Assembly: GCA_002269645.1 (NCBI GenBank)
Contig: NIVC01003170.1
Coordinates: 51,299-115,298, forward strand
Length of the DNA stretch: 64,000 nucleotides
Reading direction: 5' to 3'
Source: Macrostomum lignano
Taxonomy: Eukaryota
The notes under the pieces were generated by a model, which had not been told where the DNA came from, did not search any database, and was given only the letters and a program-made list of their open reading frames with translations. Position 1 is the stretch's first letter. Every line of letters begins with the position of its first letter. Both the position numbers and the translations under genes were made by a program. This document shows positions 14,407 through 41,037 of the stretch, piece by piece.

Positions 14407-14956
14407 AGTAGAAGGCATGAGGGGGCTTTTGGGACAAAATTTTTCACGTCCTCCATAATCCCATTAAATCCATCCATATTATCCCTGACAGAATCAGAAA
14501 AAAGGGGGGTCGGACTTGTTCACAAAACGTCCTCCATAATCCCATTAAATCCATCCATATTATCCCTGACAGAATCAGAAAAAAAGGGGGGGGTCGCACT
14601 TACTCCAAAAACTTCGAACATAATCCACCTAAATCCATCCATATTATCCCTGACAGAATCAGAAAAAAAAGGGGAGGGGCCGCACTTGCTCCGAAAACTT
14701 CGAACATAATCCCATTAAATCCATCCATATTATCCCTGACAGAATCAGAGCAGGTGTCCACTGATACCTGTTATGCTCACTGTGGACACCTGTTATGTTC
14801 ACTGACACAGACATAATCCACTGACATCCATCTATAGCATGTTCGAAACAATCAGAAAATAATCTGCATTCTTCTCCCCACATTCAATTTGCAAAGCGAA
14901 ACCAGATCCCAAAGACTTTAAATCATCAGCGCAGGGTCCTCACCCTTTGAAAAAAA
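14407..14956 (+). repeat. Left TIR of the Maverick (4 internal units of about 80 bp)
   Basis: Reverse complement of 40571-41037, with one extra internal unit. Confidence 0.95.
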
Positions 14957-15231
14957 TTAAATTCTCAATAAAAAAAATGTTTCCAGTTGTCTCTCCGGGT
15001 TCTTATTACAAAGCGCACGAGCCTAATTACAAATCCAAGTACCGATGCAAACTTGAATGCAGCGAGTACATGAGAAAATATTGGCCCGGCATTGATATCA
15101 ATGTCCCTACCCGAGAAAAAAAAACAAACCAAACTTGCTAAGTACTTGGTAAGTCAACAATGCAACCTCGTGGCAAGTACCGCCTAAGTACTTTCTAAGT
15201 TTTCCAAGTACACTCAATAAGTACTTTCCAA

Positions 15232-15840
15232 GTATCAAGTATGCAATGTTTTCTCCAGTCACTTCTCAAGTACTTTCCAAGTATGCAATGTTTTCTCTAG
15301 TCACTTCTCAAGTACTTTCCAAGTTTGCAATGTTTTCTCCAGTCACTTCTTAAGTACTTTCCAAGTATGCAATGTTTTCTCCAGTCACTTCTCAAGTACT
15401 TTCCAAGTATGTAATGTTTTCTCCAGTCACTTCTCAAGTACTTTCCAAGTATGCAATGTTTTCTCTAGTCACTTCTCAAGTACTTTCCAAGTTTGCAATG
15501 TTTTCTCCAGTCACTTCTTAAGTACTTTCCAAGTATGCAATGTTTTCTCCAGTCACTTCTCAAGTACTTTCCAAGTATGTAATGTTTTCTCCAGTCACTT
15601 CTCAAGTATTTTCCAAGTATGCAATGTTTTCTCCAATCACTTCTCAAGTACTTTCCAAGTATGCAATGTTTTCTCCAGTCACTTCTCAAGTACTTTCCAA
15701 GTATGCAATGTTTTCTCCAGTCACTTCTCTAGTACTTTCCAAGTATGCAATGTTTTCTCAAGTCACTTCTCAAGTACTTTCCAAGTATGCAATGTTTTCT
15801 TAAATCACTTTTCAAGTACCTTCCAGGTATGCAATGTTCA
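15232..15840. repeat. 42-bp subterminal tandem array, about 14 copies
   Basis: Unit aagtactttccaagtatgcaatgttttctccagtcacttctc. Confidence 0.97.
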
Positions 15841-16962
15841 CAAGAGCTATAAATACTTATCACATTTCAAAGTGATTTAGGTGACTTATTTACGAGAAAG
15901 TATATGGTTCCAAGTGTGAACCTATTAAATATATAATTTATCTATAGAGCACTTGGCAAAATGTTGATACTCATACTATGGACTTGCAAAAGTTACAAAG
16001 AACAAAAAATAATTCCATCATACAGAATTTCACTTGTTAAAGAAAAAATTCAACAAGCAATAGGGAGCTTCAAAATAATTGTAAAGTGTACTGTTATATT
16101 GTATTCAAAGTATTGATACACATAAAAGTTGCAACTTAACAAATTATTCAAATGATCACAGGCAGAAAAAATGCAAGACAAAGAAAAAGCAGCATAAAAA
16201 ATGGACAATTATATAGCTAACAAATCTTCATTGTTTTCAGCAGGTTTTTTAAATATAGATGATGACATTTGTAGATGGTAGCTAAAATGGAAATTTAAGT
16301 GAATATGAATAATTATATTTCACAAAAAATTAAACCATGTAAATTTTACCCAGGTAATAGTTCTTAATCTAAAGAAATGCTAAGTAAATGCACTTTATAA
16401 CCAATAATATAACATAGTTTATAAATATACTTAAATATTTTTTTATTATAAATTGCTTAATTTTCTGATCTTAAAATCTAAATCATCAAATATACTAAAA
16501 ATAAAAATATTCTATAAACTAAAAATAAAATTTTAAGTCTAAATACTTCTAGGCTTATAATTAAAAACTAACTAGGCTTATATTATATTTCTAATAAGCT
16601 AAAGACAATTTATTAGAATGATTATAATTAGGCTATAATTGGGCCTAATCAACAAATATCCTAAGACTTAATAAAACAATATTATTACTACCAATCTATT
16701 ATCAATAATAAAAGTAAAAAATTTGCAATCAAAATTATTAACATAGCCTGGATAATTCTAGTCCAGCTGTCTAAAAGAAAAAAAACAAAGTATTTTTACT
16801 CTGAAGCATTTCTTGCACTTTTTACAATGACATTAAATCTGAAACTGAAGATTAAAAACAGAAGCTATAAGGCAAAACTATAAACAAGGTCAAGGTTAGA
16901 TAAGGAAGGCCAGATGATTTTTCCTATCTAACCATTATGCAGATCAAGACAATAATTCTTAA

Positions 16963-18246
16963 GTAGGCACTTCAGTGAGAAAATTAAATTTCAGAAATTG
17001 TTATAGGCTGCTATTTCACTAGATAGATCTTACTTTCCCATTTCCAAAATGGCCAAACTTTAGTGATTTGGTTGAGTAATAAGGAAACTACAGCTATTTT
17101 AGTAACCCCGATTTGTGCCTTTAGCCAATGGAATTTTTACATTACGGTTTGTGATCATTTTTGGCCAAAAAGTTGGCTTTTTGTCTTTGAACACTTGTAA
17201 TTAATTTTCTAGCCAACCAAAATGACTGTGCTTGGTGTCATTTTGTTCAGTTTTTTAGTGTTAATTGTATGAATTATATATTTTAATATTATTTTATATG
17301 CCCAAGTTGCTAAGCTAATTGAAACAGGATGGGTGTATGAAATTTTGACTATTTTAACCAGATACGCAATGATTGCAATTTTAAAAATACAATAGCATCT
17401 GTTCTGCTTGCTTAATTTATACAAGGCTAGTGTCATTTTGTTCAGGTTTTTACCTACTATAATACTATTCTACTTCTTGCCCTAAATTTTTAATGCATGA
17501 CAGACACCCCAACTGCAATGTAATGTGCTGTACAGGCTTTGCGCATGGGTTTATTAAAAAACGGTTTTGTCTATCGTGTTCAGCATAGCAGAATTAGTTA
17601 AATGACACAGAGAACTAGTTTGCCGGAAGGCAGAGTCTCACAAAAAACACGAAATACACGTTTCAATGGGTATTTTACATGTAAACGTATCAAAAAAAGA
17701 AACCTCCACAAAATTTTTGCGCCTATAGCTATTGACAAGCGGTTTTTTTTACTGTGCTTGTATTGTCAATAGGTAATGAAAAATATAAAGAGAAACAATG
17801 CAGGAAAAGGATTTCATGGAAAATTTTGGATTTGAAATTTTGCATAGAGCCATATGGGCATTAAAAGAAAAAAAATTTTTTTTTAACACCAGAAAAATGT
17901 TTCTAAATTATCCCTTTACACTATAAAACCTTTGTTTCCATTATAAGAAACACATTGCAGCTAAGAAAAAGCATTTTCTGAACCACTGTTTTTTTATTCA
18001 TTTTGGCTTCAATTTTATATTCCTCCTAAAAATGGTCAACTTTAAAAATAGACAGTGCAAAAAGTATAACAAAGCTAGACTTGCAGTTGGTGTCATTTGA
18101 AAGAGCTCCTTTTTACCTTTTAAATGCATATTTTACTTTCATCCTGGCTTCTATAGTTTCTTTAAAATCGCCCTTGAAAAATTGGACTTTTTTCTTACTT
18201 TTTTGCCATTGGCACGCACTTCTTATAACTCACTGAAGTCCCTATC
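16963..18246. mobile_element. Non-autonomous TTAA-flanked DNA transposon (Kolobok-like), 1.28 kb
   Basis: TTAA|GTAGGCACTTCAGTGAG at left and CTCACTGAAGTCCCTATC|TTAA at right (imperfect 17-18-bp TIR). No ORF. Confidence 0.7.
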
Positions 18247-19099
18247 TTAAGTCACAACTCAAAAAAGTCAGTTTTAAAATTTTATCTATATTTATATTCT
18301 GAGTCAGTATAAGTAATATACTAAGCCCATATGACTATAATATTAGCCTTCTAAAAAACTTCTAGATCTAGTTAAAGAAGCCAAGAAGGCAGGCCTATGC
18401 CTATAGGGCATAGTGGGTAGGCTGGCCTACTGGGCCATATAAAATGTCAATTACAATAACTATAGTCAGCCAATTGTTGAGCGACAAGGTATATCAACTA
18501 CTATATGAAATAAAATCGGCAACAAATAATTGCTAAAAGGCCTATCTAACTAAAGCCTAAGTTTGAAAAGAAAGATAAAAGGACAATTTTACACAAACCT
18601 ATGCGAAAGCGAAAATTAGAATTTTCGTTTCAAATTTTGACAGTTTAAACAAATTAGATAATAATCATTTGCCCCAAACAATATAAGATGTAATATATAT
18701 TTCATTTGTTAATGAAACAAACACTCAAGAATCAGTAAATACTGATATTTTAGCAAAACTTCCTAAAATTTTTGTCATAATAGATTAGTAAAAGAATTAG
18801 TCTTGCAATGTGCAATTGTGTAAATGTATTTATAGAGTCTTTTCATGTAAATTATGCAATCCAAAAGAATGTTTGCCTTTTACGGAACACTAGCTTTGAT
18901 GATGCAGCTAGCCAAGCTCTTCCCAAAGAAAAATACAGACACCTATAGCTTCGGGATGTATTGCTGTAGCTGTATTCAGCTGTATTCAGGAATATAAAAA
19001 TTCCGAGGAATAGCCAAATAATCATTTTTTGTGAGCGGGAGCGATGTCAGCTAAATAAAAGCTGTTATCCTGCTGGTAAAAAATGTGTATGTACGGATT

Positions 19100-20100
19100 T
19101 TGCAAACTTGGAAAGTCAACCAAGTAGGCTCTACTTTGGATACTTTCCAAGTACTTGGATGTAGACATCGGAAGTGTACTTTGCAAACTTGGAAAGTCGA
19201 ACCAAGTAGGCTCTACTTTGGATACTTTCTAAGTATTTGGATGTAGACATCGGAAGTGTACTTTGCAAACTTGGAAAGTCGAACCAAGTAGGCTCTACTT
19301 TGGATACTTTCCAAGTACTTGGATGTAGACATCGGAAGTGTACTTTGCAAACTTGGAAAGTCGAACCAAGTAGGCTCTACTTTGGATACTTTCTAAGTAC
19401 TTGGATGTAGACATCGGAAGTGTACTTTGCAAACTTGGAAAGTCGAACCAAGTAGGCTCTACTTTGGATACTTTCTAAGTACTTGGATGTAGACATCGGA
19501 AGTGTACTTTGCAAACTTGGAAAGTCGAACCAAGTAGGCTCTACTTTGGATACTTTCTAAGTACTTGGATGTAGACATCGGAAGTGTACTTTGCAAACTT
19601 GGAAAGTCGAACCAAGTAGGCTCTACTTTGGATACTTTCTAAGTACTTGGATGTAGACATCGGAAGTGTACTTTGCAAACTTGGAAAGTCGAACCAAGTA
19701 GGCTCTACTTTGAATACTTTCTAAGTACTTGGATGTAGACATCGGAAGTGTACTTTGCAAACTTGGAAAGTCGAACCAAGTAGGCTCTACTTTGGATACT
19801 TTCTAAGTATTTGGATGTAGACATCGGAAGTGTACTTTGCAAACTTGGAAAGTCGAACCAAGTAGGCTCTACTTTGGATACTTTCCAAGTACTTGGATGT
19901 AGACATCGGAAGTGTACTTTGCAAACTTGGAAAGTCGAACCAAGTAGGCTCTACTTTGGATACTTTCTAAGTACTTGGATGTAGACATCGGAAGTGTACT
20001 TTGCAAACTTGGAAAGTCGAACCAAGTAGGCTCTACTTTGGATACTTTCTAAGTACTTGGATGTAGACATCGGAAGTGTACTTTGCAAACTTGGAAAGTC
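19100..20100. repeat. 82-bp subterminal tandem array, about 12 copies
   Basis: Unit ggaaagtcgaaccaagtaggctctactttggatactttctaagtacttggatgtagacatcggaagtgtactttgcaaactt. Confidence 0.97.
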
Positions 20101-20345
20101 GATTGAAGTTGGGTAAAAACATTGCATACTTTTTAAGTACATGACAATGATACTTTGCAAACTTGGTAAGTCAACAATGTCATCCAAGTACATGGTTGAC
20201 TTGGAAAGTTTAGCATGTTTTTTTTTCCCGGGTAATATTAATCAAGCTCTCCAAAGACACTGGTTTCATAAGTATGGAATAACCTACGTAAAAGATTACG
20301 ACAGCTACTATAACTTTGCAGAAATCATTAAGCAATTGTGATTTC

Positions 20346-21213
20346 TTACATTCTCTCAATGATCAACGTCAATACAAACTCTTCACCGTTGAAATCAACA
20401 CCCATCCCATCTTCAGTCTCAAACTGTAGCACAATCTCGTGAATCTCCTTATTACTCAATACAACTCTTTTCACTGGATTTGGTTTCTCTACCACCATCT
20501 GTCCTCCAGCTACAGAGTTGGAGATATTGTACAAAATATTCGTTCGCTTTCCCTTAAATACCCAATCAAGACTGAGATTGCTTCTGATTAGAATATTCAA
20601 ACCCTTTACAATGTCTGCAATATTGGGTGCTAAGAACAAACCGCTTACATTTTCCCGGGCCATTTTAACGGTCCTCGATGCTTGAGTGGCGGTCCGCGCC
20701 GCGGATTCTGCCTTATAAACTTTCTTCTCGAATCCCAGTTCCCTATACCAAGTGTCATCTTTAAACTCAACCTCCGCATCTTTGTGAACTTGCATGACCA
20801 CTCTCATTACAGTGAGATCATAGGTTAGTTTGACAGGGAACAGTTTCTTCTCTGGCTTACTCGCATCAGGTGTCTCAAAATGGCCTCTCTTAGTAAAGAC
20901 ATTTTCTAGAAAGTTATTGTAGGTATCCACTCTTTGCGTGCTACCATGGAATACCACAGGGTCTGCTGCTGCACCTTTCCATTTGTAATAAAATTTATTA
21001 TTTGCTGCCATCACATTGGGAACGTTTGACCAACCAGTGAAGTCGTTAAGATAGACATGGTAGCTAATTAGCGCCAGGATCCAGGCGAATCGCCTGCTCT
21101 AATTTTTCAACAAACATCCCGTTTGAGTCATTAATTCGCCCAGTTATTGTAATAGGAATGCTCTCCTTAGAGTGAGAAACAATATTATTTAGTCTTTCAG
21201 CAATCGCTTCCAT
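20346..21213 (-). pseudogene. Minor capsid protein (penton), frameshifted near 21062
   Basis: MEAIAERLNNIV...AIRLDPGAN*, then after a 4-nt shift YHVYLNDFTGWSNVPNV...NNKFYY and C-terminal IHEIVLQFETEDGMGVDFNGEEFVLTLII, typical of Maverick mCP. Confidence 0.8.
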
Positions 21214-21232
21214 TTTTTCACAAAAAGAATAT

Positions 21233-22512
21233 TTAAACTTTACTGGATGAATTGTTGATCATGTTAAGCTTCACCTTCCTCTCAAATGCATAGACAATGT
21301 ACAGGTCCACGGGTGTTGCGGCAGTCCTTTCAATGTTAGTCACGATATTCACAGGGCTGTTATCAGTAGGCATTTGTCTGGCAGACACATCAGCGCCAAA
21401 CATCGGATATAGAGTTCCATTGCAGTGATAGCAATTCCATTGTTCTCTTTCACAGCCAAGTCGACCAACTCGCTATAAAATTTGCTAATCTTGTTTTGAC
21501 TGAAATCTCCATTTTGTGGCAGTGCAGGGTAAAGATTATCACTGATTTCATGCTGAATGGACCGCACGTCTCCATGCATGTAGCGTATAATGCTATTTGG
21601 GTTTCTCATATTAATAATGATATACCTTGGATTGCTGCATGATCCCTCTTTAATGCAGATGTTTGTTCTAGTTTCGTTTCGCTCATCTCGACACATGTAG
21701 GCCGTGTATGCAACATCAATGTCCTTCTCTATTGCCTTAAGATAATCAGCTTTTAGTGCAGTCTTTGGCTCAATGACTTCCAAATACAGCTCGATTCCGG
21801 TTAGCTTCACATCCATCCTAGTGTGATCCGCCCCAGTCCACAACGCTCTACTGCGATCATCTCTAGTCAGTCTAAATGTGTAGCTAAAGTTACTAGTCAG
21901 TCGATTAAATGTATTACAGAATCCACTCATGAATCTTAGTGGTACAAATACATCAACAGACCGATACTGCGGGTTCTTAGCAGCATCATCAGCACCTTGC
22001 AATGCATAGTTGTATCTCTTCTTCCTCTTTTTATAGCCACTGTCATTGGTGTCTCCTTCTTTTTCATCTGCAATAAAACCCGCACCACTTCCCAACTGAA
22101 TAAAATCAGGATTCTCGATCAAACAATGAGCGTCATAGACAATTCCAAAGTTGGCGATTCGCTCCAACTCAGTGCTCCCATTCGATACACTAAACTCCTT
22201 GAACATGTACGCCAAAAAGTTACTGATCAGAGCCACATCCGCATCATGCTTGTCAACGTTAGCACGAGCCGCATCCGCACCACCCTTTGTCTTGAATTGA
22301 AATGTCATATGGAAGCCGCTCTTAAGACTGTGCACACTAACCAGAGACGAACATCCATTGTAAGTGAATGTCAGTGTTTGACCAGGACCAAGATTAGTTT
22401 CATTCTGATTTTCCTGACTGGGAACTCTTACCTGAGTCGCTTTGATTGTGCTATCATCACTCAAAATAGGCTTGTTAATTTTGTAGAAAACTGGTGTCAG
22501 TGGGTCGTTCAT
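21233..22512 (-). pseudogene. Major capsid protein (double jelly-roll), frameshifted near 21410
   Basis: 387-aa ORF with N-terminal DDST...P...NLGPGQTLTF and FVPLRFMSGFC. The alternative frame continues PMFGADVSARQ...AFERKVKL...*, the expected MCP C-terminus. Confidence 0.82.
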
Positions 22513-22544: not shown

Positions 22545-23801
22545 ATGAAGCGAAAAAGTACACAGCAGATATCTGAATTGGAGAAGCTAGCACAAGCAGA
22601 GAAACGAGTTACCGGGCTAATAAATAAGGAGCAACAATCCTACAATGAGTTTGTCCAAGCAGCTACAGAGTTTCATAAACCCGGGTATGGAGAAGCTAAG
22701 AAAAATATTGATCAGGTCAAAGAAACTATCGACGACATACAGGAAACCCAGGTGCAAAAGGCTTTGGGCAAAATTCCAGAAGCACCACAGATACAGCCGC
22801 AACTACAACAATCACAACCACAACAACCACAACCACATCAATCACAACTAAAAGTGACAGATAACATTTTTGGACCAGTAGAGCGTGTAGAACATGATGG
22901 GAAATATGTATTTGGAATAAGTATGTGGAGAAAAAATATTTATAATGAACCAGTGGAATATTATATCGACATAAATAAGAAACATATTTCTGTTGTCAAA
23001 GGCTCGGAAACTAAGAGCATTCCTTTCACAGAAACCTTACTGAATTTTATGACCAAGAACCAAGAGAGAATCTCGGACAAACAGCTAAAGAACTACAGAG
23101 ATCTAGTGATTTTTTCTCTTGCTAGAGATATAGAAATACTAAAGGTCCCAGAAGTTCTGAAACACATGTACGATAGCGGTGTCAACCTGACTAAATTCAA
23201 AAAGTACAAGCACTTTAAACAATGGTTCGATTTGCCAGATCAGGGGGAAGTCATTGATCAGATGAAATATCTAGAACAACAACAGCAACCGCCACAACAG
23301 CAGCAACATTCCACAGAAGAACAAGTACTTAGTCAACTCGAGCAGTTAGACCCTTTGAAAGTAGCTGAATATAAAAATGATCACCCAGATGCCTGGCAAC
23401 TCTTAGAACAACACTCTCCAGATCGAATGAACAGAATCAAGCAAAGAGTTTTCACACCTCAACAAAGACAGGCGCCACATGACAGTTCCATCTCTGAAAG
23501 TGAGCAGTCTTTTGCATCACCTCCCCAGCAGCCACAAGCCCAACCAACTCCACAACCTCAAGACCAACCGCCTTCAACTGGAAAAGGAATAGCTGAAATC
23601 TACAAGCGAGTAGCGGTTCTTCTAGGAGCAGCAAAGACCGGAATGAAAGATGAGAATAGAAAAGAGTTCGTTCACATCCTCAATAAAATGCTTGAGAGAA
23701 AATACATCGATAAGAGGGCGAGAGAGCTTCTGCTTTCGCGGTTCAACAAAAAAAAATTTATTTCAAGTAAAAATGCCACTTATTTTCGAAAAAGACATTG
23801 A
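22545..23801 (+). CDS. Maverick hypothetical protein, 418 aa, Q/P-rich, with a conserved-looking C-terminal helix motif
   Basis: Long ORF. C-terminal GKG^IAEIYKRVAVLLGAAKTG...EFVHILNKML..YI resembles a motif I recall from Maverick proteins. Confidence 0.75.
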   Translation: MKRKSTQQISELEKLAQAEKRVTGLINKEQQSYNEFVQAATEFHKPGYGEAKKNIDQVKETIDDIQETQVQKALGKIPEAPQIQPQLQQSQPQQPQPHQSQLKVTDNIFGPVERVEHDGKYVFGISMWRKNIYNEPVEYYIDINKKHISVVKGSETKSIPFTETLLNFMTKNQERISDKQLKNYRDLVIFSLARDIEILKVPEVLKHMYDSGVNLTKFKKYKHFKQWFDLPDQGEVIDQMKYLEQQQQPPQQQQHSTEEQVLSQLEQLDPLKVAEYKNDHPDAWQLLEQHSPDRMNRIKQRVFTPQQRQAPHDSSISESEQSFASPPQQPQAQPTPQPQDQPPSTGKGIAEIYKRVAVLLGAAKTGMKDENRKEFVHILNKMLERKYIDKRARELLLSRFNKKKFISSKNATYFRKRH

Positions 23802-24150
23802 CAAATACTATGACAAAGAGGAACTTAATCTCATTAAACGCGGATCTGGACTTTTCCCTGCAGGCCACTATCCAAGAAAAGAACGCTCAGGGAACGGTCT
23901 TGCCGATTTGATCGCTCAGGGGGCCAAGATTTTTAAGGTCATTGGAGAGAACAAAGAGAACATCAAGAACGTTGCCGAAGCGGCTGGCAGTGTAGCCACA
24001 GCAGCCAAAAAGATAAAGGATACTGTAACACCTAAACAAGAGATTCAACCGCTGGCTCCGCTGGCCCCAAATCCAGACAATGTGGACCCTGCAGTCTATG
24101 AGAAGATGAGAGCTAGCATTAAAAAGGGAAGCGGTTTCAAATTTGACTAA
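23773..24150 (+). CDS. Small Maverick protein with GxG motifs and an amphipathic helix (candidate membrane-lytic virion protein)
   Basis: KRGSGLF, RSGNGLADLIAQGAKIFKVIG, KKGSGF. ATG preceded by an A-tract. Confidence 0.65.
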   Translation: MPLIFEKDIDKYYDKEELNLIKRGSGLFPAGHYPRKERSGNGLADLIAQGAKIFKVIGENKENIKNVAEAAGSVATAAKKIKDTVTPKQEIQPLAPLAPNPDNVDPAVYEKMRASIKKGSGFKFD

Positions 24151-24199: not shown

Positions 24200-24302
24200 G
24201 AAATGACACATCTAAGTCCCAAAATGACACATTTAAGTCCCAAAATGACACATCTAAGTCCCAAAACGACACATTCAAGTCCCGAAATGACACATCTTCT
24301 AA
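24200..24302. repeat. 21-bp tandem repeat, about 5 copies
   Basis: Unit aaaatgacacatctaagtccc, just upstream of the ATPase. Confidence 0.9.
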
Positions 24303-24340: not shown

Positions 24341-25141
24341 ATGGACTTCTCAAACGACTTCAATCCTCACTGGACGCGTAATCAGATTAAGTTTTCTCAT
24401 CACGAGTCAATCCCGAGTCACTTCAGATGCATTGTTGTTGGTTCATCAGGTTCAGGTAAAACATTCAGAGTCTTTAACATGCTTCTTAGACCTGGCTTTA
24501 TCGACTATGACACTCTGCACATCTACTCTCCCACACTGTATCAAGATGAGTATAAAATGCTGATTTCTGGATTGCAAAACAAACTGAACAAAGAGGACAT
24601 TATTCAATGTTTTAATAACCAAATGAGCCTTCCCAGTAACCCTGAAATTGTAGCTGCTGAATATGCAAAGCACCTCAAAGACAATGAAAAATGGCAGAAC
24701 ATTAAAGTGTTCACCTATGGAGATCCGCAGGCTGATCCAAAGACCAAACTTCTACCCCAACCAGATGAGCTAGAAAAAGGGAGAAAGCATTTGATCGTCT
24801 TTGATGATTGTATGACAGGCCCACAGAAGCAGATAGAGAACTATTTTACAAGAGGGCGACATAACAATTGTAATGTAATTTACATTGCACAGAACTGGTT
24901 CGAGCTCCCGAACAAAACAATTCGTGGGAACTGCAATCTGATTCTCCTGTTTCCAACCATTCCACAGGATAGGCTAAAAAGATTTTACAATGAGGTCATT
25001 GCGCCTGCCTATTTTATAAATCCAACAAAAAACTCAAGCAGAAAGATTTCACAAGAGGAATTCGTTAATCTTTGCTATGACAAGTGGAACCAACCCTATC
25101 AGTTTGTCATGATCAACAAGGAAAAAAGAACTGTAATTTAA
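24341..25141 (+). CDS. A32/FtsK-like genome-packaging ATPase
   Basis: Walker A VVGSSGSGKT, Walker B LIVFDD, TRGRHNNCNVIYIAQ. Confidence 0.93.
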   Translation: MDFSNDFNPHWTRNQIKFSHHESIPSHFRCIVVGSSGSGKTFRVFNMLLRPGFIDYDTLHIYSPTLYQDEYKMLISGLQNKLNKEDIIQCFNNQMSLPSNPEIVAAEYAKHLKDNEKWQNIKVFTYGDPQADPKTKLLPQPDELEKGRKHLIVFDDCMTGPQKQIENYFTRGRHNNCNVIYIAQNWFELPNKTIRGNCNLILLFPTIPQDRLKRFYNEVIAPAYFINPTKNSSRKISQEEFVNLCYDKWNQPYQFVMINKEKRTVI

Positions 25142-25157
25142 AATTTGCTAATAAAAG

Positions 25158-25976
25158 ATGTCTATTAATTTTGCAGGTGAATCCATTTCTGGCAACAGCG
25201 CTCTTACATCAGCTCAAATATCCATCCTTGACAGGCGATATATCAACAGCGACGAAAAGATCCCAGAGATCAAACTGAATAAAAACAGACTGAAAGCCCT
25301 GGAGCGCTCCATGCACCAGTTGCAAATAAACATGGAAGATCTCAGGCTTAAAGTAGCTAGGCAGAAGTTTGAAAGTGATAAGCTTTATGTGCCGTTGTTA
25401 AACGCAACTAATGAACTTAGGTCAGAAATAACTTCGGCAGTCTCGCAAATCAACAGCTTAAGATCGACAGTTAATCTTCTGGGAAATTCCACTGATAGAC
25501 GGATGCGTATTCTTGAAGGAGGAGTTTTCACAAACACAGCTAAAGTGAATAATTTAGAAGAGTTCATGAACCAGTCAACAGCGTTGCATGATAGAATTAA
25601 AGAAAACGTCGCAACCAACACAGGTAAAGTGAGGAATTTAGAAGAGTTCATGACTCAGTCAACATCGTTGCATGATCGAATCAAAGAAAGACTTGAAGCA
25701 TTAAAGAGAAAGGATGTATCACACAGTAGCTATCTAAACGGAATGTATAGCTCTTGGGGTAAAATACTAAGGAGGCTTGATCGTCTGGAGAGAACACTCA
25801 ATCTTCGTGATATTGCTATTGATGAAGCAGAATCTACTGCTCGTCCGGTCATGTCTACAGATCGAGTAGAAGGAGCTCTGGACCCCGCCGGAGTAATCCG
25901 GCACGCTCTCAAACGTCAGCCGCCCAGCCGCTGCCTGCTGGACTCGCGATCCTCCGGCGTCACGAGAGCCGCCTAG
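25158..25976 (+). CDS. Coiled-coil protein with an internal 28-aa duplication (candidate fibre)
   Basis: Heptad pattern; TNTAKVNNLEEFMNQSTALHDRIKE repeated as TNTGKVRNLEEFMTQSTSLHDRIKE. Confidence 0.6.
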   Translation: MSINFAGESISGNSALTSAQISILDRRYINSDEKIPEIKLNKNRLKALERSMHQLQINMEDLRLKVARQKFESDKLYVPLLNATNELRSEITSAVSQINSLRSTVNLLGNSTDRRMRILEGGVFTNTAKVNNLEEFMNQSTALHDRIKENVATNTGKVRNLEEFMTQSTSLHDRIKERLEALKRKDVSHSSYLNGMYSSWGKILRRLDRLERTLNLRDIAIDEAESTARPVMSTDRVEGALDPAGVIRHALKRQPPSRCLLDSRSSGVTRAA

Positions 25977-27146
25977 ACAACCGGCGGTGCAGATGGAATT
26001 ATCAAAAAGAAAACAGATCTTTCAACCGGGTAGTTTTGTAATTTTTTTATTTTTTCTAGAGAAAAAAATGGCCCAACAAAATTCTCTATACGATCAGTCT
26101 CAATACGTTGAACCTAAAATACCGACAGCACCAAACCCAATGGCACCGAATTCGAACACACAAAGCCTGAATGCACCGAATCTGAATGCACCTCAATATG
26201 AGCAACAAAAACTCTACCCCGTCATTACTTGTAACTCTCAACAGTTTCGACTAGTGGAGATTCAAAAAATGCGAGATGATCTTGAAAAAAATATTTTCCA
26301 CAACACAAAGAAAATTAAGCGCTATGACAGCCACTGTAAATTTTTCGACTACAGCAATATGATTCTAGGATCTGTGTGTGTTCTAACTGGGTCTGCTGCA
26401 GCTGTCTCAGTGTTGCCAGTCATCACAGCCCCAATCGCAATCCCGCTCGGCTCTGCTGGTGCTGCATGTGGACTTATTTCAGCAATTACTGGAGCATTAG
26501 CGCGAAACAGGCGAAAAAACTAAAGCAGCTACAGGAGAAGCAAGTAAAAGAGAAAGGGGTGCACACTTCAATCATAGGATACATTTCAAGGGCAATCGAG
26601 GATAAGTTCATTTCAGAGGATGAGTTCAAAACCATTCAGGATCTTTATGAACAATCAATTCGAATGAACTTGAACATGGTCGGTACTGGGGGGGCAAACG
26701 GCAACTTAAACCGAGGGACTCTGTGACATCCGCCAGCTTTTCGTTTTTCGAGGAGGCTCTTCCCCCTCCTTTTCGTTCTGGCCTGGCGTGGAAGCGGCTA
26801 GCTTCCTCGTCTTGGTCTGCTGGTGGGGGACGGATCCCCCCTGCTGCTTTTTTGCGGGGCAGGTGGCTGCTAAGTAGTTGGCTGCTGGCTAAGCGCCAAC
26901 TACCCATCGACAGCCCTTAGTTGCAACTGGTACCACACGGGTTCTCGAGGGCCGCTCTTGTGGGGGAGGGCTCGGGCGTCGGCTGTCAACTCGACCTGGC
27001 GCCTGTGTCCCAAGCCCGCAGCCGGCCTCCCGCCCCCTGATCTTGCAGAGTGTGGACCGGGGGCCTGCCGGAGCCTCGCCTGGGAGCAATCCTGGGATAA
27101 GACGGCAACCCAAAGCTTCTCTGCTGTTTACCGTGGCAGAGGGTAG

Positions 27147-31977
<4,831 letters not shown>

Positions 31978-32195
31978 TCCTTGTGCTCTTTTACCTTGGG
32001 GTTGCGATAGGGGCCTCGCGGCCTATTCGCGGCGCCTGCGCCCCCCGTCAGTAGTAGTAAGTATGGTCGGTACTGATGACATGAGTCAACTGAAAAATGA
32101 ACTCGAGAAAGTTTTTCAACATTATGCGGAAAGAAAGTCGGCAAGAAGGACGGTGAGAAATTCGGTAAGGACAACGAGAAATGCACAATGAACCC

Positions 32196-32597
32196 CTATG
32201 AAACACAGGTACGAATAATTTCCTTGTAGGTCTTTCGTGTTTTGGTCATTGCAAACAAAACAGTCATGCACAGCTCACCGCAAATATCACTGCTAAGACC
32301 TTGGAGAATAAAGTCTGAGCGATAAATTTTTTTATTCTTTTTTCCCTTCATATAATTTCTTAGCTCTTCTGGTACTGCCGTCCCATAGCTATCGAAGTAA
32401 TAACACTTGTGCTTGCGATCGGGATCAATCACCCAGCAAACCCAATGAGATCCCGGCTTATCAGTGGTGTCAAAGTTCATGATGCCGCATTCTTTTCTTA
32501 GAGGAAAACCAGGCAGAGTGTCCCTCATAAATATTCCTCTAAAGTTTGGGATTTCCAGTTCGTTAGCCAAATCTTCAAGAAAGTTATTTGTCGTCAT
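32196..32597 (-). CDS. Adenain-like cysteine protease
   Basis: GSHWVC, YYFDSYG, Q...SDICGELC: catalytic H, D, Q, C present. Confidence 0.93.
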   Translation of the reverse strand: MTTNNFLEDLANELEIPNFRGIFMRDTLPGFPLRKECGIMNFDTTDKPGSHWVCWVIDPDRKHKCYYFDSYGTAVPEELRNYMKGKKNKKIYRSDFILQGLSSDICGELCMTVLFAMTKTRKTYKEIIRTCVS

Positions 32598-32649: not shown

Positions 32650-35600
32650 CTAAACCCAACCTCCTAAGCCTAATCTCCAATGCCCGAACGGTAGACTGTT
32701 AATATTGTCATCAAAAATGAATCTCTTGTTATCTGCACCTGACAGACCAATCTTCTTTTGCTGAATTGTGTGAATAATATGGTTTTTAGATTGTAGCTTT
32801 GAGAACTCATGTGATGTCTTTTTGTTGCAATTCAAGGCGTCTCTGTATTCAGCTTCATTAATTTCCTTCCTAACCACACGTTTCGGAATTCCCTTTGATT
32901 TTTTAATTGGGTCTGACGACTCACATTTTACAAAATAGGACTTTGCTCTCAACCCAATGAATTCAGTGATTATGTCACCAGCAATCTCGTCCTTCATTTT
33001 CCCAATCACTTTCTTGTTAGTAGCGTCAAACACTTGATCGCCATTCTGTGTCCTGCAAGATTCATCATACTCAGACAAGTCAAACAAATCTTTTTGCTGC
33101 AGCATGTCCTGATAAATGTCTTCTGTTTGAATGTCCATAATAAAACTGTCTGTGTCAGTGTACAAGAGTTTCATTTTATCCTTGTACTGCTGCTTCATGC
33201 CATAGAAGAACTGGTACATCAGACGTTTTGATTCGTCGAGAACAGTGACACCTGTATAGATCGGCTTGCGCAGCGTCACCTTGGTTTTGTAAAATATGAT
33301 CACACCTAAGTAGCTATTAAAGATATGGAGTTCTTTGAATGTTGGCTTTGACATATTTGCCTGAATAACAGCAGGCTCTGATGAGGTAACAAGTTTCAGG
33401 TTTGTTCTTTTCCGCTCATTCTCAAGAGTCTTGCCATAGACAGAGTTGTTGGCCAACTTAAAGAGGTTCTTGTCAAAGTCGTTGGTTGCTTTGGTCCTAA
33501 ACTGGGTGTTCTTATCAATGTAGGGTTTCATCCACGCTTCCTCTGTAAATGTAAGAGCCCGGTGAACTTTGGTGACCCTGCAACCAAGTGAGATAAAATA
33601 TTGAAGCAGTTTGTAATGGATTTTGTAACGTGTCTTGTTGTTTAGATTCTGTGTTAGTTTCTCTGTATGTTCTTTTTCTGTTCCTGACAGGTGCCAAGTT
33701 CCATTATTATCATTGGGAGTTTCGATTATTTTCGGGCACTTGATGTTCTCTGGGAAGGGTGGAAAGTCAGAGAAATAGTCGTGAAGCTCTGGTGGAATGT
33801 AAACATCAACTTCATAAATGGCAGCCAATGAAAAGTCCCACTTTAGTTCTGATGAGGGTAGCCATCGAAAATCTCTAACTGGAAGATCTTGACTCATCGC
33901 CCACCCGTAGAGATTATTAGCGTCCAAGTAAGTAATGTAGTTTGAGGGTTGCTCCTTATTGTAAGATCCAATGTAGGGATTGTTTGCTCTTGCATACCTG
34001 TTAACACAAATTGAGATTCCCCCTCGCTTTGACGATTCGACAAAATTGTACATGTCAATGTCTGTAAGAAGTTCAATGTACCAATCTGGATCTTGATCCC
34101 ATTTCATTTTAAGCAAAGATTCCCAGCTAGTGGCAGGCAGAGACACATAATGTGCTGGATCGAGGCCATATGCTGTGTACCAGGTGTATCTGAAGGTTTC
34201 AAACACATCGGCCAGCAGAAACACATCTGTGAAGAGGTAAAGCAGGTGATACTGGAAAAAGTTTTGACAATTAAAGTAATTATAGACATGCTTCGCGTGC
34301 TCATAGTCTTTGTCAGAGATTCCAGAGTTTGTTAGCTTTGAAAAGAATTTCTCCTGTGGTGGTAAACCTTCTTCAAATACGTGATACCCAGTAATATTTT
34401 CATAGGGGTAGAAGCCTTTGGTTCTCAGGAGTTTAAATGATTCATCACTGTTGTAAATTTTACTTGCAAACATCTTTGTATATGTACATTGTTCATCTTT
34501 TAGATTCTTGCTTAGTTCGTCTAGACTGGCAGCAAGAAATTGATATGAATCCTTCAGTCTTATTTTACCTGTAATTGAATTGTCCTGTTTAATATCAACA
34601 CACTTAAACTTCTCCTTGGTCTCTGCGATGCAATCAAGGTGTATGTCTGGAATCATGCCGATTTTTTCAACTATTAAATGCATGTCATAGTTCTTTGCGT
34701 TGTGACAAAATATCGTTAGATCATGAATGTTCGATTTTAGCTTTAGATTACAGGTGTTATGCGCTGCACCTCTAAATTTCCCAGTAAAGTGGCAGTGGTC
34801 CCTAACGGTGGGGTTTTTTTAAATCAGTGCAAGTTAACTGTTTCCTGCAGATGTGGCAATGAGTTGCTGATAGGAAATTGCTTTCATCCTCCTCAGACAT
34901 ACTTATTGGAACAGGTTGAAGGGTGCTAATCACTTTTTGCAGCTCTAACATTCTGGCAATAAACTGCTCCACACACTGCTCTCCAAAGAAATAATTATAC
35001 TCAACAAGTCCTTTTGTATTAATAAAGGCATATGCTACTGAATTGGGGACATGTTTTTGAGTTTGAGTTTGTTTTTGAGTTTCTGGCACGATTGAGCATT
35101 CGAAATCAGCATATACAACAAATGGGAGCTTCTCCATCTTGTGATAGTTCTTAAACCGGAGATACTTCTCTTCAGCTGAAGGAAGAGAGCAGTTTGTTGG
35201 GTGATCCTCGCATGATAATTCATGCTCTGCTAGTTTTTCAAAGCGTTCAGGTCCACTGTAATGCTTAAGGCACAAGCGGCAGATGGCAACAGCCTCGTGA
35301 TGATTATTCAACTGCTTGTGAATGAGTCTTGAAAGATCTTTAATCCAAACATAGTGAGCCTCCTCTAGTAAATTACCAATCACTAGAAGATCCACTTCAG
35401 TCCGCCTTTTCCCCTCAGGATCTAAAACGTCTTTGCTACATCTGACCGGTTGAACTTTCTCAGTTTTTTCACTCCACTCAAAGACTGTGATTCTAATTTT
35501 GTTATTAAACACTTCTTCTAGCTTAGGGATCTGAGAAATCGCCAAGCCTCCTTTGTCAAACCTGATTCCCTTCTTTTCGCATTCGATGAGATAGTAGTTG

Positions 35601-36496
35601 AAATAATTTTGATAATTTGAGGTTCTTTCGGGGTGGTGAGGGACACTATCATAAAGAAGTGCAGAAAGAACTGCCCATAGAGCACAGCAATTGTCTTTAT
35701 TTTTAACATTTATGCAAGCTTTTTTGCCGGCTAGCTTATGCGGGAGCTCTATATAAGAGGAGGCTTTAAGTGGGTCATATTTCATGACCATGACAGTCGC
35801 TCTTTGAATCCCCCCTACGACCCATCCGGAACCTCTGGATGTAAACGCTTCAATTTTCTTAGTGACATCTTGAAGGAAAGGATCCAGTGTGTCTGTAGGG
35901 GTGAATGGCTTTGCCTTTGTTGTCATGTAATACTCGAGATGCTCAGTGGGTTTTGCAGGCATATAAAACGCAATCTTGAATGATATCTGTAGTTTAAAAG
36001 TCTTGCGTGTTTTGAGTGTGTGATCAACAACTGATTGGATGCTGTCTTTATAGTCGTAGATATTTGCGGTGGTACCGTTGGTGCCGTTAATTGGGATTGT
36101 GTACTCTATGTAATGTTCTGTAAACTTCCTCTGTGCAAAATTAATCTCTTCAATGGCAAGCTCCGACTCTTTTAAATGGATTAATTGCTCTAATTTCTCT
36201 TGTTCCTGCTTATTTTGTGGGTACTTTGCTTTTTCACCAGTGAGAGTTTCGTATTTGTTAACTAAGTTGCGACTCCTCTCTTGGTGTTCCTTTGCAGGAT
36301 TTTGTATAGGCGCATATTGGTTGGATTCTAATTGATTGATGATTTCCAACTGTTTTTCATAGCTTCCCAGGTGACCAGGGTCGGTGTTGAACCTTTGTTT
36401 GCATGCTTCTCTTAGTAAATTACTTTTGTCTTGAAATGAGACGCCTTTTGAAAAATATTTGTTGACTAAATCTTTTGCTGGATTAGCTTTTGGCAT
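32650..36496 (-). CDS. Protein-primed DNA polymerase B, split by one +1 frameshift in a homopolymer near 34810-34820
   Basis: ExoI YADFEC, VRDHCHFTGKFRGAAH across the junction, FCHNAKNYD, YLDANNLYGWAM, KLANNSVYGK, YTDTDS. Confidence 0.95.
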
Positions 36497-36620
36497 TTTT
36501 TTCTCTAAAATAAAAAAAATTTTTGAGGGTGACCACCCTGATAGAAAAGTTGAACTGTTTCTACATCCTATAAGTAGCGTTAGGTTTATGAAGCTGGATA
36601 AAGTGGGGTTTTAAACCTCA

Positions 36621-37066
36621 TCACATCCGCATTATTGTAAACCCAGCATTGTGTAGTGTCATGATTGCTTTGACAATGTCAGACTTGCTTACAGAATTTT
36701 CATGCTCACAATCATCAAAATCCGGGCAGCCCTCTCCTGCCTTAATTGTTATACCTTTATCTCTTGCAATCTTTTGCAATTCCAGCTGGTGGGCTCTATC
36801 ATTACCAGCTTTAACAGCAGTTGCTACACCTCCAGCTACACCACCTGCGGCACTTACAGCGCCTGCAATGATCGGAATAAGAGCTGCTAATGGTAGGATT
36901 CCTCCTGACTTTTCATCTGTGATGCTGTGTCTTTGCTCATTACACTGAACTATTTGCTGCACGGGATCGACTTTTACTTTGGCACCTTTAATTGATATAA
37001 GACCTGGTTTCTTTGATTCAATGATTTTATTGAGTTTATTGAGGTTCTAGTTTCAATCTTTGTCAT
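36621..37066 (-). CDS. Adenovirus protein X (mu)-like protein, 1-nt frameshift near 37045
   Basis: KSGG^ILPLAALIPIIAGAVSAAGGVA resembles adenovirus pX RGG^ILPLLIPLIAAAIGAVPGIA. Confidence 0.7.
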
Positions 37067-37082: not shown

Positions 37083-38078
37083 TTAATTAATTTCCGTGTC
37101 AGCTGGTATCACTAGGAGTTCAGCTCTAGTGAATGACCGCGTGGGGGATTTAGGGTTAAAAGCCTGAGATAAAAAGTAATAGTCACCGGAGTCGGAGGTA
37201 AAATGTCTGTCTATTTTATGTACATCAAGGCTGAAGTATGGATCTGTAGCTCTTCTTTTGGTGTCCTTCTCTAGCTCTCCAGGTAGATATAAAAAGCGTA
37301 GAAACTCAGAGTTTGTCAGTATGTATGGTGATTCAACTCCTGGAAGCTTAGGGTAGTTCGAGGTGTCTGTTCTATGAGATGACTTAAGTTCGACAGTGTC
37401 TTGTTTAATTGCATGGGATGGTTTCAATCCAGTCATGCGTGTGACTTCATTGTTCAGTTGCTCTATAACAGTGGGGAGCCGGTCTGACCACTTGGTATAG
37501 TACTGACCACTTTTTAGTTTCAGCTCTTCAGCTGTCTGCTTAGTGAATAGCCTCTTGGCTAGAGTTAGATTGAATCTTTCCACAAAAGCCTGGTCTCTGT
37601 GTAGCTCAGTTCTTCCATAGCGAATTTTTGTGTCATGCTTATGTAGAAGTGATTTCACTGCACCCATGAATTCTTTACCCGGGTCCGTCATAAAGATTTC
37701 AGGGTAACTAAGGGGTGAGTTTTTATAAATATCTTGGAGGGCGGCTGCAACTGCTTCTGACTTCTTCGTCTTAAGCGGTCTCGCTTCCTTATATCTGGAG
37801 GCAACGTCTGTAATTGTAAGAGCATACTTGTAGCCTGAGTCGTTGGGGAGAAACAAAAGATCTGCTTGGTGCGCTTCATTAGGTTTATAGATGCTAAAGT
37901 GAGGTCTTGTAAATTTTACTGGTGGGAAATAGACTTGAAAGAGAGCCTGCTTAGAGAGCGATTTTTCTACTGTAGCTTTTGGTTCCTTACTCAGCTCCAT
38001 TAGTTTACTAACGGCATTTTTGCCTACAAAGAATCCTTTGTCGCTGTAGTAGAGTTTTTTAAGTTTCTGATCTGTCAT
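37083..38078 (-). CDS. Retroviral-like (rve) integrase
   Basis: HQADLL, TDVASRY, TDPGKEF, VERFN (D,D,E intact). Confidence 0.95.
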   Translation of the reverse strand: MTDQKLKKLYYSDKGFFVGKNAVSKLMELSKEPKATVEKSLSKQALFQVYFPPVKFTRPHFSIYKPNEAHQADLLFLPNDSGYKYALTITDVASRYKEARPLKTKKSEAVAAALQDIYKNSPLSYPEIFMTDPGKEFMGAVKSLLHKHDTKIRYGRTELHRDQAFVERFNLTLAKRLFTKQTAEELKLKSGQYYTKWSDRLPTVIEQLNNEVTRMTGLKPSHAIKQDTVELKSSHRTDTSNYPKLPGVESPYILTNSEFLRFLYLPGELEKDTKRRATDPYFSLDVHKIDRHFTSDSGDYYFLSQAFNPKSPTRSFTRAELLVIPADTEIN

Positions 38079-38108
38079 TTATTTAAAAAGAAAATTTTAA
38101 ATAAAATA

Positions 38109-38579
38109 ATGCAGCGCTCTGGTGGTAAAATAGATTCACATGGACTGATAGAAAAGCTTCCTCATCCAAACAAAGGCTGGACACTTCCCGGCTATAAATA
38201 TTGCGGGCCTTTGAATCCACTTGAAATACAGCTAGATAAAAACAATAATCCACATCCTGGGCATGAGCCTGTGAACGAGCTAGACTCTGTCTGCATGTGG
38301 CACGACGTTAAGTATAGAGATTTTCCTGAGGAGAAGAATCGCTGGGACAAAGAAATGCTCAGGAGACTCGACAATATAGGGGCTTCAAGCGGATTTCGCG
38401 AGTCTATTGCTCGGAAGCTAGTTAAAGCTATTATTTTTAGTAAGACAAAATTGGGGTTGGGGGTTGAAGGCGAGGGTGGGTGCACAGGGAGAGAGAGCGG
38501 GGTGGGCTTTGTACTGCATGCACCAAGGAAAGAACTAGGAAGACTGCTGAAAGAGCTGGGGGTTGAGAGAGCAGAATGA
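38109..38579 (+). CDS. Parvovirus VP1u-type phospholipase A2
   Basis: LPGYKYCGPLN (Ca loop), NELDSVCMWHDVKY (HD dyad), downstream D. Confidence 0.88.
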   Translation: MQRSGGKIDSHGLIEKLPHPNKGWTLPGYKYCGPLNPLEIQLDKNNNPHPGHEPVNELDSVCMWHDVKYRDFPEEKNRWDKEMLRRLDNIGASSGFRESIARKLVKAIIFSKTKLGLGVEGEGGCTGRESGVGFVLHAPRKELGRLLKELGVERAE

Positions 38580-39075: not shown

Positions 39076-39849
39076 TTATTTACTATTCTTTTTTATTTGA
39101 ATAACACCCATACTCCAATAGGTTTTATATTGATGTGAACACATTAACATGTCTTCAATATCATTTTTTAAGGTGTAAAGTTCTTCAAATGTTATATTTA
39201 GCTTAAAAAAACGAGGATAATCATGTAATGTTTTACTAAGAGACAACATTTTTCTAATAGTGCTTTTAGCATATGTTATCCCATGTTGTTGCAAAAACTC
39301 CAAAACCTGATCATCACAACTTTTACATATAACAGTTTCTTCAGGATGTTCTATTCTATATTTCGCTGCGTTGTGGTTAAACCATACACCACAGATGTAT
39401 GTGGCAATGAGCATACGATTATTACATCTTTTTAAACTTGTGACTGCCGTCTGTAGTTGTTCTTGTACAGATAACGGCATATTCGTATCAACAATAGAAT
39501 AGGGGTGATTAAATTCATCGACCCCTTCAAATTCAAATACTTTTGCGCAAAGATATTGATGAAGCGTCTCACCAGTTGGCCGTAGTTTTTGCTTCTTTAC
39601 TTTTACTTTCTTTCTTGCTGTTTGATCTTGATCCTCATCTACATCCATGCGCTCTTCATTTAATTTTTTTGATCGATCTTCTAAATTGCCACAACTAGGT
39701 ACCAACGGGCAATCTAATGTAACTTTTAAATGAATTAAATCATCTTCAGATAAGAGTAGTTCGTGTTTATTGTTATATTTTGCTAACTCATTTAGCTGTA
39801 AAATTTTAGAGAAGAGAGATAGATCTGGTGTGACAGACAAGTCAGACAT
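39076..39849 (-). CDS. Maverick orphan, 257 aa, AT-rich
   Basis: Open frame with a basic NLS-like stretch RKKVKVKKQK and a helical C-terminus (KSTIRKMLSL...DYPRF). Confidence 0.65.
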   Translation of the reverse strand: MSDLSVTPDLSLFSKILQLNELAKYNNKHELLLSEDDLIHLKVTLDCPLVPSCGNLEDRSKKLNEERMDVDEDQDQTARKKVKVKKQKLRPTGETLHQYLCAKVFEFEGVDEFNHPYSIVDTNMPLSVQEQLQTAVTSLKRCNNRMLIATYICGVWFNHNAAKYRIEHPEETVICKSCDDQVLEFLQQHGITYAKSTIRKMLSLSKTLHDYPRFFKLNITFEELYTLKNDIEDMLMCSHQYKTYWSMGVIQIKKNSK

Positions 39850-40271
39850 TTTTAACCGAGTAACTCTTCAAAAGTAGTTGTATAAATAAGCTTTCTTCCT
39901 TACCCGACCGACTTTGGGGGGGGGGGTGTCCGCCTGATAGCGGCGAGACGACTTGGCTTTGGGGATAAGGGGAGAGAATTGAGTAGACTGAGAAGAGCTG
40001 TGGGACGAGGGACAATGGAGGATCGGGGGTATGGTTTTGGTTGGCCATACGTATGCCATACGTAGCATACACGTGCTGCGGGATTGACTGTAGGTAGAGA
40101 AGTGGAAAGAGAGAGAACTTGCTATGTAGAAATAAATGCTCGCGGTGAGGAGAAGCTTGTGCATAGGAAGAGAGGTTCTCTCTGTATACGGGGCCTGCGT
40201 ACTCTGAGTTAGTGAGGGCATGAAGCTTTTGTATGGGGGAAGAGATATTTGCTCTGTACATGTTCGGCGGC

Positions 40272-40378
40272 GGAACATTTGTTGGGCTGAGGAACAAATG
40301 TTCGGCTGAGGAACATTTGTTCGGCTGAGGAACATTTGTTCGGCTGAGGAACATTTGTTCGGCTGAGGAACATTTGTA
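40272..40378. repeat. 19-bp tandem repeat, 5-6 copies
   Basis: Unit gaggaacatttgttcggct. Confidence 0.9.
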
Positions 40379-40570
40379 GCTGGCTCTGTAGCTGGTGCCC
40401 TAGAGGGTAGTTTTACATTTTTCCCTTAGATAAATAGTTGCAAGTGGTTGATTTTAGATGTAAGAGCATTGTGTATGAATAGATCTTAGTAGACATTAAC
40501 AAGCCTGGCAGAACTGTTCAGTGTGAGTTCCTATAATAAGAACCTGGAGAGATGATTGGAAGCATTTTTA

Positions 40571-41037
40571 TTTTTTTCAAAGGGTAAGGACCCTGCGCTG
40601 ATGATTTAAAGTCTTAGGGATCTGGTAGCACGTTGCGAATTGAATGTGGGGAGAAGAATGCAGATTATTTTCTGATTGTTTCGAAGATGTTATGGGTGGA
40701 TGTCAGTGGATTATGTCTGTGTCAGTGAACATAACAGGTGTCCACAGTGAGCATAACAGGTATCAGTGGACACCTGCTCTGATTCTGTCAGGGATAATAT
40801 GGATGGATTTAATGGGATTATGTTCGAAGTTTTCGGAGCAAGTGCGGCCCCTCCCCTTTTTTTCTGATTCTGTCAGGGATAATATGGATGGATTTAGGTG
40901 GATTATGTTCGAAGTTTTTGGAGTAAGTGCGACCCCCCCTTTTTTTCTGATTCTGTCAGGGATAATATGGATGGATTTAATGGGATTATGGAGGACGTGA
41001 AAAATTTTGTCCCAAAAGCCCCCTCATGCCTTCTACT
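40571..41037 (-). repeat. Right TIR of the Maverick (3 internal units)
   Basis: Inverse of the left TIR. Confidence 0.95.

Follow-up and report, generated by a model that had tools for sequence, protein, structure and literature searches.

Does the stretch of Macrostomum lignano DNA analysed here (the window: 64,000 nucleotides of contig NIVC01003170.1, assembly GCA_002269645.1, forward-strand positions 51,299 to 115,298) hold a complete Maverick with its viral genes in working order? A preliminary description had placed such an element at window positions 14407-41037. We find a bounded Maverick/Polinton at this site, and consider it likely to be a young, defective integrated copy of a divergent Maverick with a Beta-type polymerase (Eupolintoviridae-like), later struck by a non-autonomous DNA transposon and a long interspersed nuclear element (LINE). 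Judged from its sequence, the copy is not intact as assembled, whether through decay or assembly error.

The element has two matching ends and integrated recently

The following features define the borders:

14401-14406, plus strand: left target-site duplication (TSD) CAGTTG, identical to 41038-41043
14407-15008, plus strand: left terminal inverted repeat (TIR), 602 bp, starting AGTAG, with 3.5 copies of a ~85-bp subunit
40534-41037, minus strand: right TIR, 504 bp, with 2.5 subunits, ending CTACT
41038-41043, plus strand: right TSD CAGTTG, read from the sequence

The CAGTTG pair is a perfect 6-bp duplication (chance about 2e-4 for a given 6-mer). TIRs with AG...CT ends and a 6-bp TSD characterize Mavericks/Polintons, for which we followed PMC8097293. 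When the two TIR arms were aligned, they gave 488 matches, 16 mismatches and four gaps. All 16 substitutions lie in the inner part; the outer part has none over its first 341 aligned columns (upper bound ~0.9%), and its gaps consist of one 81-bp subunit, extra in the left arm, and two single bases. Because the outer TIRs lack substitutions and perfect duplications surround all three insertions (the Maverick and two nested inserts), the integration appears to be young. Both the extent of the element and its recent arrival had been proposed in the preliminary description and are supported by these ends.

The core genes of a Maverick are present

We scanned 24 open reading frames (ORFs) against Pfam. 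Within the element, matches were to PF21738 (major capsid protein, MCP), Pox_A32, Peptidase_C5, rve, PF08398 (phospholipase A2, PLA2) and PF05829 (pX). Together with searches for relatives, these matches identify the following genes:

21233-22512, minus strand: double-jelly-roll MCP, frameshifted (PF21738, relatives, tblastn, fold matches)
24341-25141, plus strand: packaging ATPase of the A32/FtsK type in an open frame (match to Pox_A32 at E 5e-6; Walker A motif GSSGSGKT)
32196-32597, minus strand: adenain-type cysteine protease, 133 aa, open frame (Peptidase_C5; adenovirus proteinase 1avp, E 0.001)
32650-36496, minus strand: protein-primed family B polymerase (pPolB), probably Beta class, frameshifted (relatives, motifs, tblastn)
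36621-37066, minus strand: pX-like core protein gene, apart from PLA2, probably frameshifted near its 5' end (Adeno_PX)
37083-38078, minus strand: rve integrase, 331 aa, open frame (Pfam rve)
38109-38579, plus strand: parvovirus-type PLA2, 156 aa, open frame (PF08398, E 1e-13)

The MCP matched PF21738 at E 2e-5, below the cut-off, and its sequence profile matched no PDB sequence. Nine relatives were found among 2220 candidates, seven at 70-76% and two at 42-45% identity, all on contigs shorter than 4 kb. Its structural model has low confidence (predicted local distance difference test, pLDDT, 44) and was used for fold class alone; the top eight of 48,161 PDB chains were all viral jelly-roll capsid or scaffold proteins, the best at Z 9.6 with a root-mean-square deviation of 4.2 over 167 aligned residues.

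The PLA2 keeps its catalytic residues: H65, D66, Y69 and D80, together with YCGP, are invariant in all nine aligned sequences. Eight relatives at 55-64% identity were found among 86 candidates. The separate pX ORF matched Adeno_PX (PF05829) at E 4e-7, above the cut-off, and the PLA2 ORF did not match this family, in Pfam searches that are less sensitive than the HHpred searches used by Starrett.

The element therefore carries the packaging ATPase, adenain-type protease and double-jelly-roll MCP, the last frameshifted, and the protein-primed family B polymerase, also frameshifted, and rve integrase by which Mavericks/Polintons are recognized. The pPolB, integrase, ATPase, protease, MCP, PLA2 and pX-like genes named in the preliminary description are each backed by profile, relatives or fold. 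An exact look-up of 10 window proteins in a protein collection found none.

The polymerase is divergent and probably of Beta type

Among 8000 scored candidates, 7161 were relatives of the pPolB at E ≤ 1e-30, and identity over the catalytic part was 41-46% in the 120 relatives listed. The pPolB fragments keep GSGW, the cysteine motif NKDNCCALW (residues 266-274 of the N-terminal fragment), YADFE, DANNLY, KLANNSVYGK and YTDTDS, and the N-terminal fragment aligns with all 78 full-length relatives. A tree that included 31 of these 120 relatives gave the pPolB a branch of 0.90, compared to a median terminal branch of 0.08. A polymerase fragment search gave a chance match alone.

No Pfam family, PF03175 included, matched the pPolB at E ≤ 0.01, nor did the Pfam OTU profile. 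When 12 relatives were tested, PF03175 matched six weakly (46-65 bits) and six not at all, and an endonuclease VII-like insertion was matched in 10 of the 12 at E ≤ 0.01. In the classification of Starrett et al. (2021; PMC8502044), Alpha elements have a pfam03175-type polymerase and Beta elements a divergent one; PLA2X is typical of virion modules of the Alpha (Mayetiola) class, and Beta modules typically have GasderminX and Cupiennin. Because there is no PF03175 match and the insertion is of endonuclease VII type, the polymerase falls outside the Alpha definition and is probably Beta-type, a label read from profile matches.

The PLA2 speaks against this label, since PLA2X is typical of Alpha virion modules. 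The preliminary description had placed the element with beta adintoviruses on the strength of its PLA2. That argument is wrong, as PMC8502044 assigns PLA2-like genes to Alpha modules, and we rejected PLA2 as a Beta marker; the label itself is probably right by way of the divergent polymerase. The definition of adintoviruses by Buck et al. (10.1101/2024.03.25.586562) includes a domain resembling OTU at the N-terminus of the polymerase and a C-terminal chromodomain on the integrase. We detected no chromodomain in the integrase, rve being the sole Pfam match of the 331-aa ORF at E ≤ 0.01. For this reason we file the element as a Maverick/Polinton that would work like a Beta adintovirus, with no claim of genus membership.

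Several genes are frameshifted or split

Besides MCP and pPolB, four features bear on coding capacity:

14977-20341, plus strand: small ORF of ~80 codons that starts inside the left TIR and is split by insert 1; the frame is open on either side of the TA duplication
20346-21214, minus strand: penton (minor capsid protein) gene, probable, with a likely frameshift (located behind MCP; motifs; A-rich context of the start at 21214)
26068-26688, plus strand: hydrophobic helical-hairpin membrane protein, frameshifted, split by the LINE (relatives, tblastn, model of a relative)
32076-32191, plus strand: basic C-terminal remnant of the membrane-protein gene past the LINE; the frame stays open across the right-hand duplication until a stop at 32191

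Aligning homologs with tblastn located frame changes in MCP (~21415), pPolB (~34810-34830) and the membrane-protein gene (~26490-26520). The alignments with relatives of MCP and pPolB stay collinear on both sides of each break. From the context of start codons and the spacing of genes, the penton (~21070-21100) and the pX ORF (between ~37010 and 37066) are judged to be probably frameshifted as well; the latter has no in-frame ATG ahead of its domain. AAAA precedes ATG in 11 of 15 predicted starts and in 20 of 535 ATGs overall, a contrast that is partly circular, as six of the 15 starts were picked with the A-rich context in view. Three first ATGs (23650, 24203 and 25993) were rejected as genuine start codons, and so was the ORF at 20346-21011 as the whole penton. 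The ATG at 24203, upstream of the ATPase start, sits in a 21-bp repeat.

The integrase, ATPase, protease and PLA2 frames are open. The element was first described as complete, which holds for its gene inventory and fails for its coding capacity: a minimum of three core or virion genes carry frameshifts, the probable number being five, and transposons interrupt two ORFs, insert 1 the small ORF at 14977 and the LINE the membrane-protein gene. With frame changes in pPolB and MCP, and subject to assembly error, the copy lies outside the intact Mavericks of Barreat and Katzourakis (2021), in which no core ORF is interrupted.

The membrane-protein and polymerase genes carry near-identical sequence ahead of their ATGs (26040-26068 and 36496-36525), consisting of a T-rich stretch, TAGAG and an A run. 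This shared sequence resembles a splice acceptor or a common late-promoter motif.

Two transposons are nested in the element

GC-rich and AT-rich blocks inside the element mark two inserts:

15110-20232, strand unassigned: insert 1, non-coding DNA transposon of ~5.1 kb whose ends read CCC...GGG (TA duplicated; subterminal arrays of 42 and 82 bp)
26689-32062, plus strand: insert 2, full-length LINE of ~5.4 kb with a short (AGT)n tail (13-bp duplication, 26676-26688 and 32063-32075)

Insert 1 has a GC content of 33%, its longest listed ORFs encode 75-87 aa, and we take its anatomy to be EnSpm/CACTA-like. The LINE, presumably LOA-like, contains ORF1 (27237-28160, 307 aa) and ORF2 (28160-31852, 1230 aa), the latter encoding endonuclease, reverse transcriptase and RNase H. 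ORF2 apparently shifts frame at 31830-31920, just before its expected end, which is weakly backed (E 12) by a second LINE; the 3' part of this second LINE occupies window positions 2-1402, and its protein is ~31% identical to ORF2 of the nested copy. Subtracting both inserts leaves ~16.1 kb, so the mapped borders agree with the two inserts (5.1 and 5.4 kb) and ~16-kb remainder of the preliminary description. Most simply, both inserts came after the Maverick had integrated.

Candidate virion and accessory proteins

The remaining ORFs of note are as follows:

22545-23801, plus strand: 418-aa Q/P-rich ORF with a helical C-terminal domain, no Pfam match
23773-24150, plus strand: basic protein of 125 aa that contains an amphipathic helix and three G-x-G sites, no Pfam match
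25158-25976, plus strand: 272-aa coiled-coil protein, fibre or cement candidate (just generic SMC-type coiled-coil matches)
39076-39849, minus strand: 257-aa accessory ORF, no Pfam match (Atlas matches are eukaryotic clusters)

The penton candidate gave no match in Pfam, PHROGs, NCBIfam or, by sequence, PDB. We presume its identity from motifs and position; it is the only core gene without tool support. For the minor capsid protein claimed earlier, then, the ORF behind MCP stands and its identity is unbacked by these four databases. By its position, the 418-aa ORF is presumably Adintoc2-like. The 125-aa protein is presumably a cupiennin/pVI-like core candidate, a name that no database confirmed. 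Sites of the form G-x-G/G-G followed by a hydrophobic residue or lysine number three each in the 125-aa, pX and PLA2 ORFs and zero to two in longer proteins, a count that would fit protease-processed core proteins.

The membrane protein, with 23 relatives, presumably belongs to the GasderminX family, a name likewise unconfirmed in databases. The model of a relative (P0131; pLDDT 73) folds as a long hairpin of helices whose turn is hydrophobic. Its best viral matches were uncharacterised iridovirus proteins (E 1e-5 to 2e-4), its PDB matches were generic BAR and coiled-coil proteins (Z ≤ 10.5), and SLATT/2TM proteins matched weakly in eight of 50 rows (E 0.06-0.6). Gasdermin was absent from the best 50 PDB and best 50 BFVD matches, although the two may yet be kin. 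Sequence profiles of the family gave weak matches to AopB (E 0.002), the RTX N-terminal domain (3 of 21) and LeoBC (7 of 16), which we read as probably reflecting shared hydrophobic hairpins. The modelled fold raises the question of whether the GasderminX family is gasdermin-like at all. The gene lies between those for ATPase and adenain, as expected from the Beta maps of PMC8502044 (Fig. S2), which label SLATT genes too; related viruses reportedly have SLATT-like genes as well (10.64898/2026.10.13.758929).

Near the ends of the element, the small ORF start lies at the inner end of both TIRs (14977 and 40565); the N-termini are related and the right ORF ends early. Beside the right TIR, two open frames of 155-185 codons overlap at 39842-40425, together with a 19-bp tandem repeat; they match no family and could be what is left of an accessory gene.

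Decay, assembly error or recombination

Several observations weigh against a young, defective copy as we have described it. All located lesions are frame changes, and no nonsense codon occurs in any homolog-aligned stretch; the probability of five frameshifts without a stop is 0.30, ~0.09 and 0.008 at 5, 10 and 20 substitutions per indel, respectively. The outer TIRs differ by two single-base gaps and no substitution. In addition, the names penton, cupiennin-like and GasderminX have no database confirmation, and the element is known here from the sequence of one copy. Because the frameshifts occur without nonsense codons, assembly error may account for some of the apparent decay. It is possible, though clearly less probable than genuine decay, that most of the frameshifts are sequencing or assembly indels and that the true copy is very recent, with open core genes, and damaged just by the two nested transposons. 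Homopolymer runs at two of the three homolog-located breaks and the apparent frame shift near the ORF2 end of the young LINE agree with this explanation, as do the stop-free alignments and gap-only outer TIRs. However, slippage in real genomes likewise favours homopolymer runs, the MCP break has none, and exact tandem spacings (11 of 12 for the 82-bp, 13 of 13 for the 42-bp and 9 of 9 for the 16-bp array) oppose a high indel error rate. A misassembly of a different kind, in which different copies were joined, would account for the 81-bp and 16-substitution differences between the TIR arms in a repeat-rich region. We regard it as very improbable, as the element and each of the two inserts have matching duplications on their flanks, every core gene occurs once and homologs are collinear across the breaks.

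The mixed gene content could instead have arisen if a Beta element acquired PLA2, perhaps along with the pX and integrase genes next to it, from an element of the Alpha class. PLA2X is the hallmark of Alpha modules and module swaps are documented (PMC8502044), AB and BA pairings appear in 10.1101/2024.03.25.586562, and pX, integrase and PLA2 are grouped at one end of the element. We nevertheless find such a chimera doubtful: the PLA2 here appears unfused to pX, unlike PLA2X, and PLA2 and MCP relatives occur in similarly small sets (eight and seven), which would fit one stable clade. PLA2 genes also stand beside Beta-type polymerases in marine invertebrate Polintons. Given this, and because genome maps in figures lay outside the text we searched, the mix may be under-reported, not rare. 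The inserts, for their part, could be cargo of a non-autonomous element that is still mobile, since its ends and integrase are intact and insect polintons with LINE cargo and without polB stayed mobile (10.1101/2025.02.07.637071). This seems unlikely to us, as intact vertebrate elements measure 12.7-24.6 kb (PMC8097293) and this one is longer at 26.6 kb, a single copy is in view and insertion after integration takes fewer assumptions.

A more ambitious joint reading, which we hold to be improbable overall, is an undescribed and still active Beta-type animal Maverick lineage whose virion would carry both entry kits, which the present scheme regards as alternatives: stand-alone PLA2 with pX, and a cupiennin-like peptide with a GasderminX-type SLATT/2TM-like hairpin pore protein shared with iridoviruses and not derived from gasdermin. 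Most frameshifts would then be assembly errors, and the 55-76% identical relatives on short contigs circulating forms. Taken separately, the existence of an active relative is plausible.

How the ancestor might have worked

On the reading we prefer, a young and defective Maverick, an rve integrase inserted the element and left the 6-bp duplication. Its ancestor may have replicated as linear DNA primed by the terminal-protein domain of its own polymerase, that domain being freed by a vOTU protease, by analogy with known families, for which a TP (terminal protein)-vOTU-polymerase layout is described (PMC11161782). As in related families, the ATPase would package DNA into a shell of MCP and penton, and adenain would mature core proteins at glycine sites. 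PLA2 and amphipathic peptides might then allow escape from the endosome, and the hairpin membrane protein could be a further entry or exit factor. The maturation and endosomal-escape steps are modelled on adenovirus and parvovirus biology. As assembled, this copy would make no full-length polymerase or capsid and could move just with help in trans.

Surroundings of the element

Of 78 frames scanned, eight matched a Pfam family; GTP cyclohydrolase I, MIT, PAN, fibrinogen-C and doublecortin were among the flanking domains, which indicate an animal host. Host exons encoding GTP cyclohydrolase I, MIT and doublecortin sequences lie at 3233-3937, 6125-6445 and 47375-48520. An inverted duplicate pair of fibrinogen-C domain genes (9771-10787 and 12820-14052; 73-80% DNA identity), one with a PAN match, precedes the Maverick, and the right-hand copy ends ~350 bp from it. 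At 8064-8999 on the minus strand, an intronless 311-aa ORF, unmatched in Pfam, starts like a signal peptide. A dispersed repeat of 190 bp, its copies 88% identical, occurs on either side of the element (2045-2236 and 50888-51073). Dense minisatellites with units of ~4-54 bp fill 41114-62210, and one of them begins ~75 bp past the element's right border. An Rfam scan of the 64-kb window gave no match.

Comparison with known elements

Animal genomes commonly hold Mavericks with both borders and capsid genes, and these are mostly defective, as are 96% of vertebrate Maverick loci (PMC8097293), so the basic finding is ordinary. Somewhat less ordinary are the divergent lineage and a gene mix that cuts across the division of entry genes into Alpha and Beta in the literature, a point relevant to cell entry of Mavericks, a step that is predicted, not shown. 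With its open frame and catalytic residues, the PLA2 can be assayed as is. We found no statement of a Beta-type polymerase with a stand-alone PLA2 in the accessible text of the literature, including 10.64898/2026.07.28.741253, 10.1101/2023.10.06.561300, PMC3671162, 10.1101/341131, 10.1101/2023.08.22.554363, PMC12567637, PMC9683012 and PMC8363768, a weak negative because genome maps drawn in figures are not part of that text.

Polinton polymerases of Dendronephthya, Sycon, Anneissia, Elysia, Mytilus, Actinostola, Pantherophis and Ahaetulla share the endonuclease VII-like insertion and full-length alignment with the pPolB, which differs from these marine-invertebrate and snake enzymes by its 41-46% identity and long branch. 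As in Lepidoptera Polintons with LINE or long terminal repeat (LTR) cargo (10.1101/2025.02.07.637071), a LINE lies inside a TIR-bounded polinton; the cargo form of the former amplified, whereas one copy with two inserts is seen here.

Like Betadintovirus (the Terrapene box turtle adintovirus class; Eupolintoviridae; PMC8502044), the element has a divergent, non-PF03175 polymerase, rve integrase, ATPase, adenain and hexon, and its genes are arranged much alike, in the order penton, hexon, ORF, ATPase, membrane protein, adenain, polymerase (layout text of Fig. S2, panel B). It differs in having a PLA2, assigned to Alpha modules in the same paper, pX as a separate gene and an integrase without detected chromodomain. 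The candidate GasderminX and cupiennin-like genes are probable further likenesses to Betadintovirus. With Alphadintovirus (the Mayetiola barley midge adintovirus class) it shares the parvovirus-type PLA2 and the pX domain, but its polymerase is not of PF03175 type, its PLA2 and pX appear unfused and a probable GasderminX/SLATT-like gene is present. The element thus joins a probably Beta-type polymerase and a stand-alone PLA2 with this probable GasderminX/SLATT-like gene.

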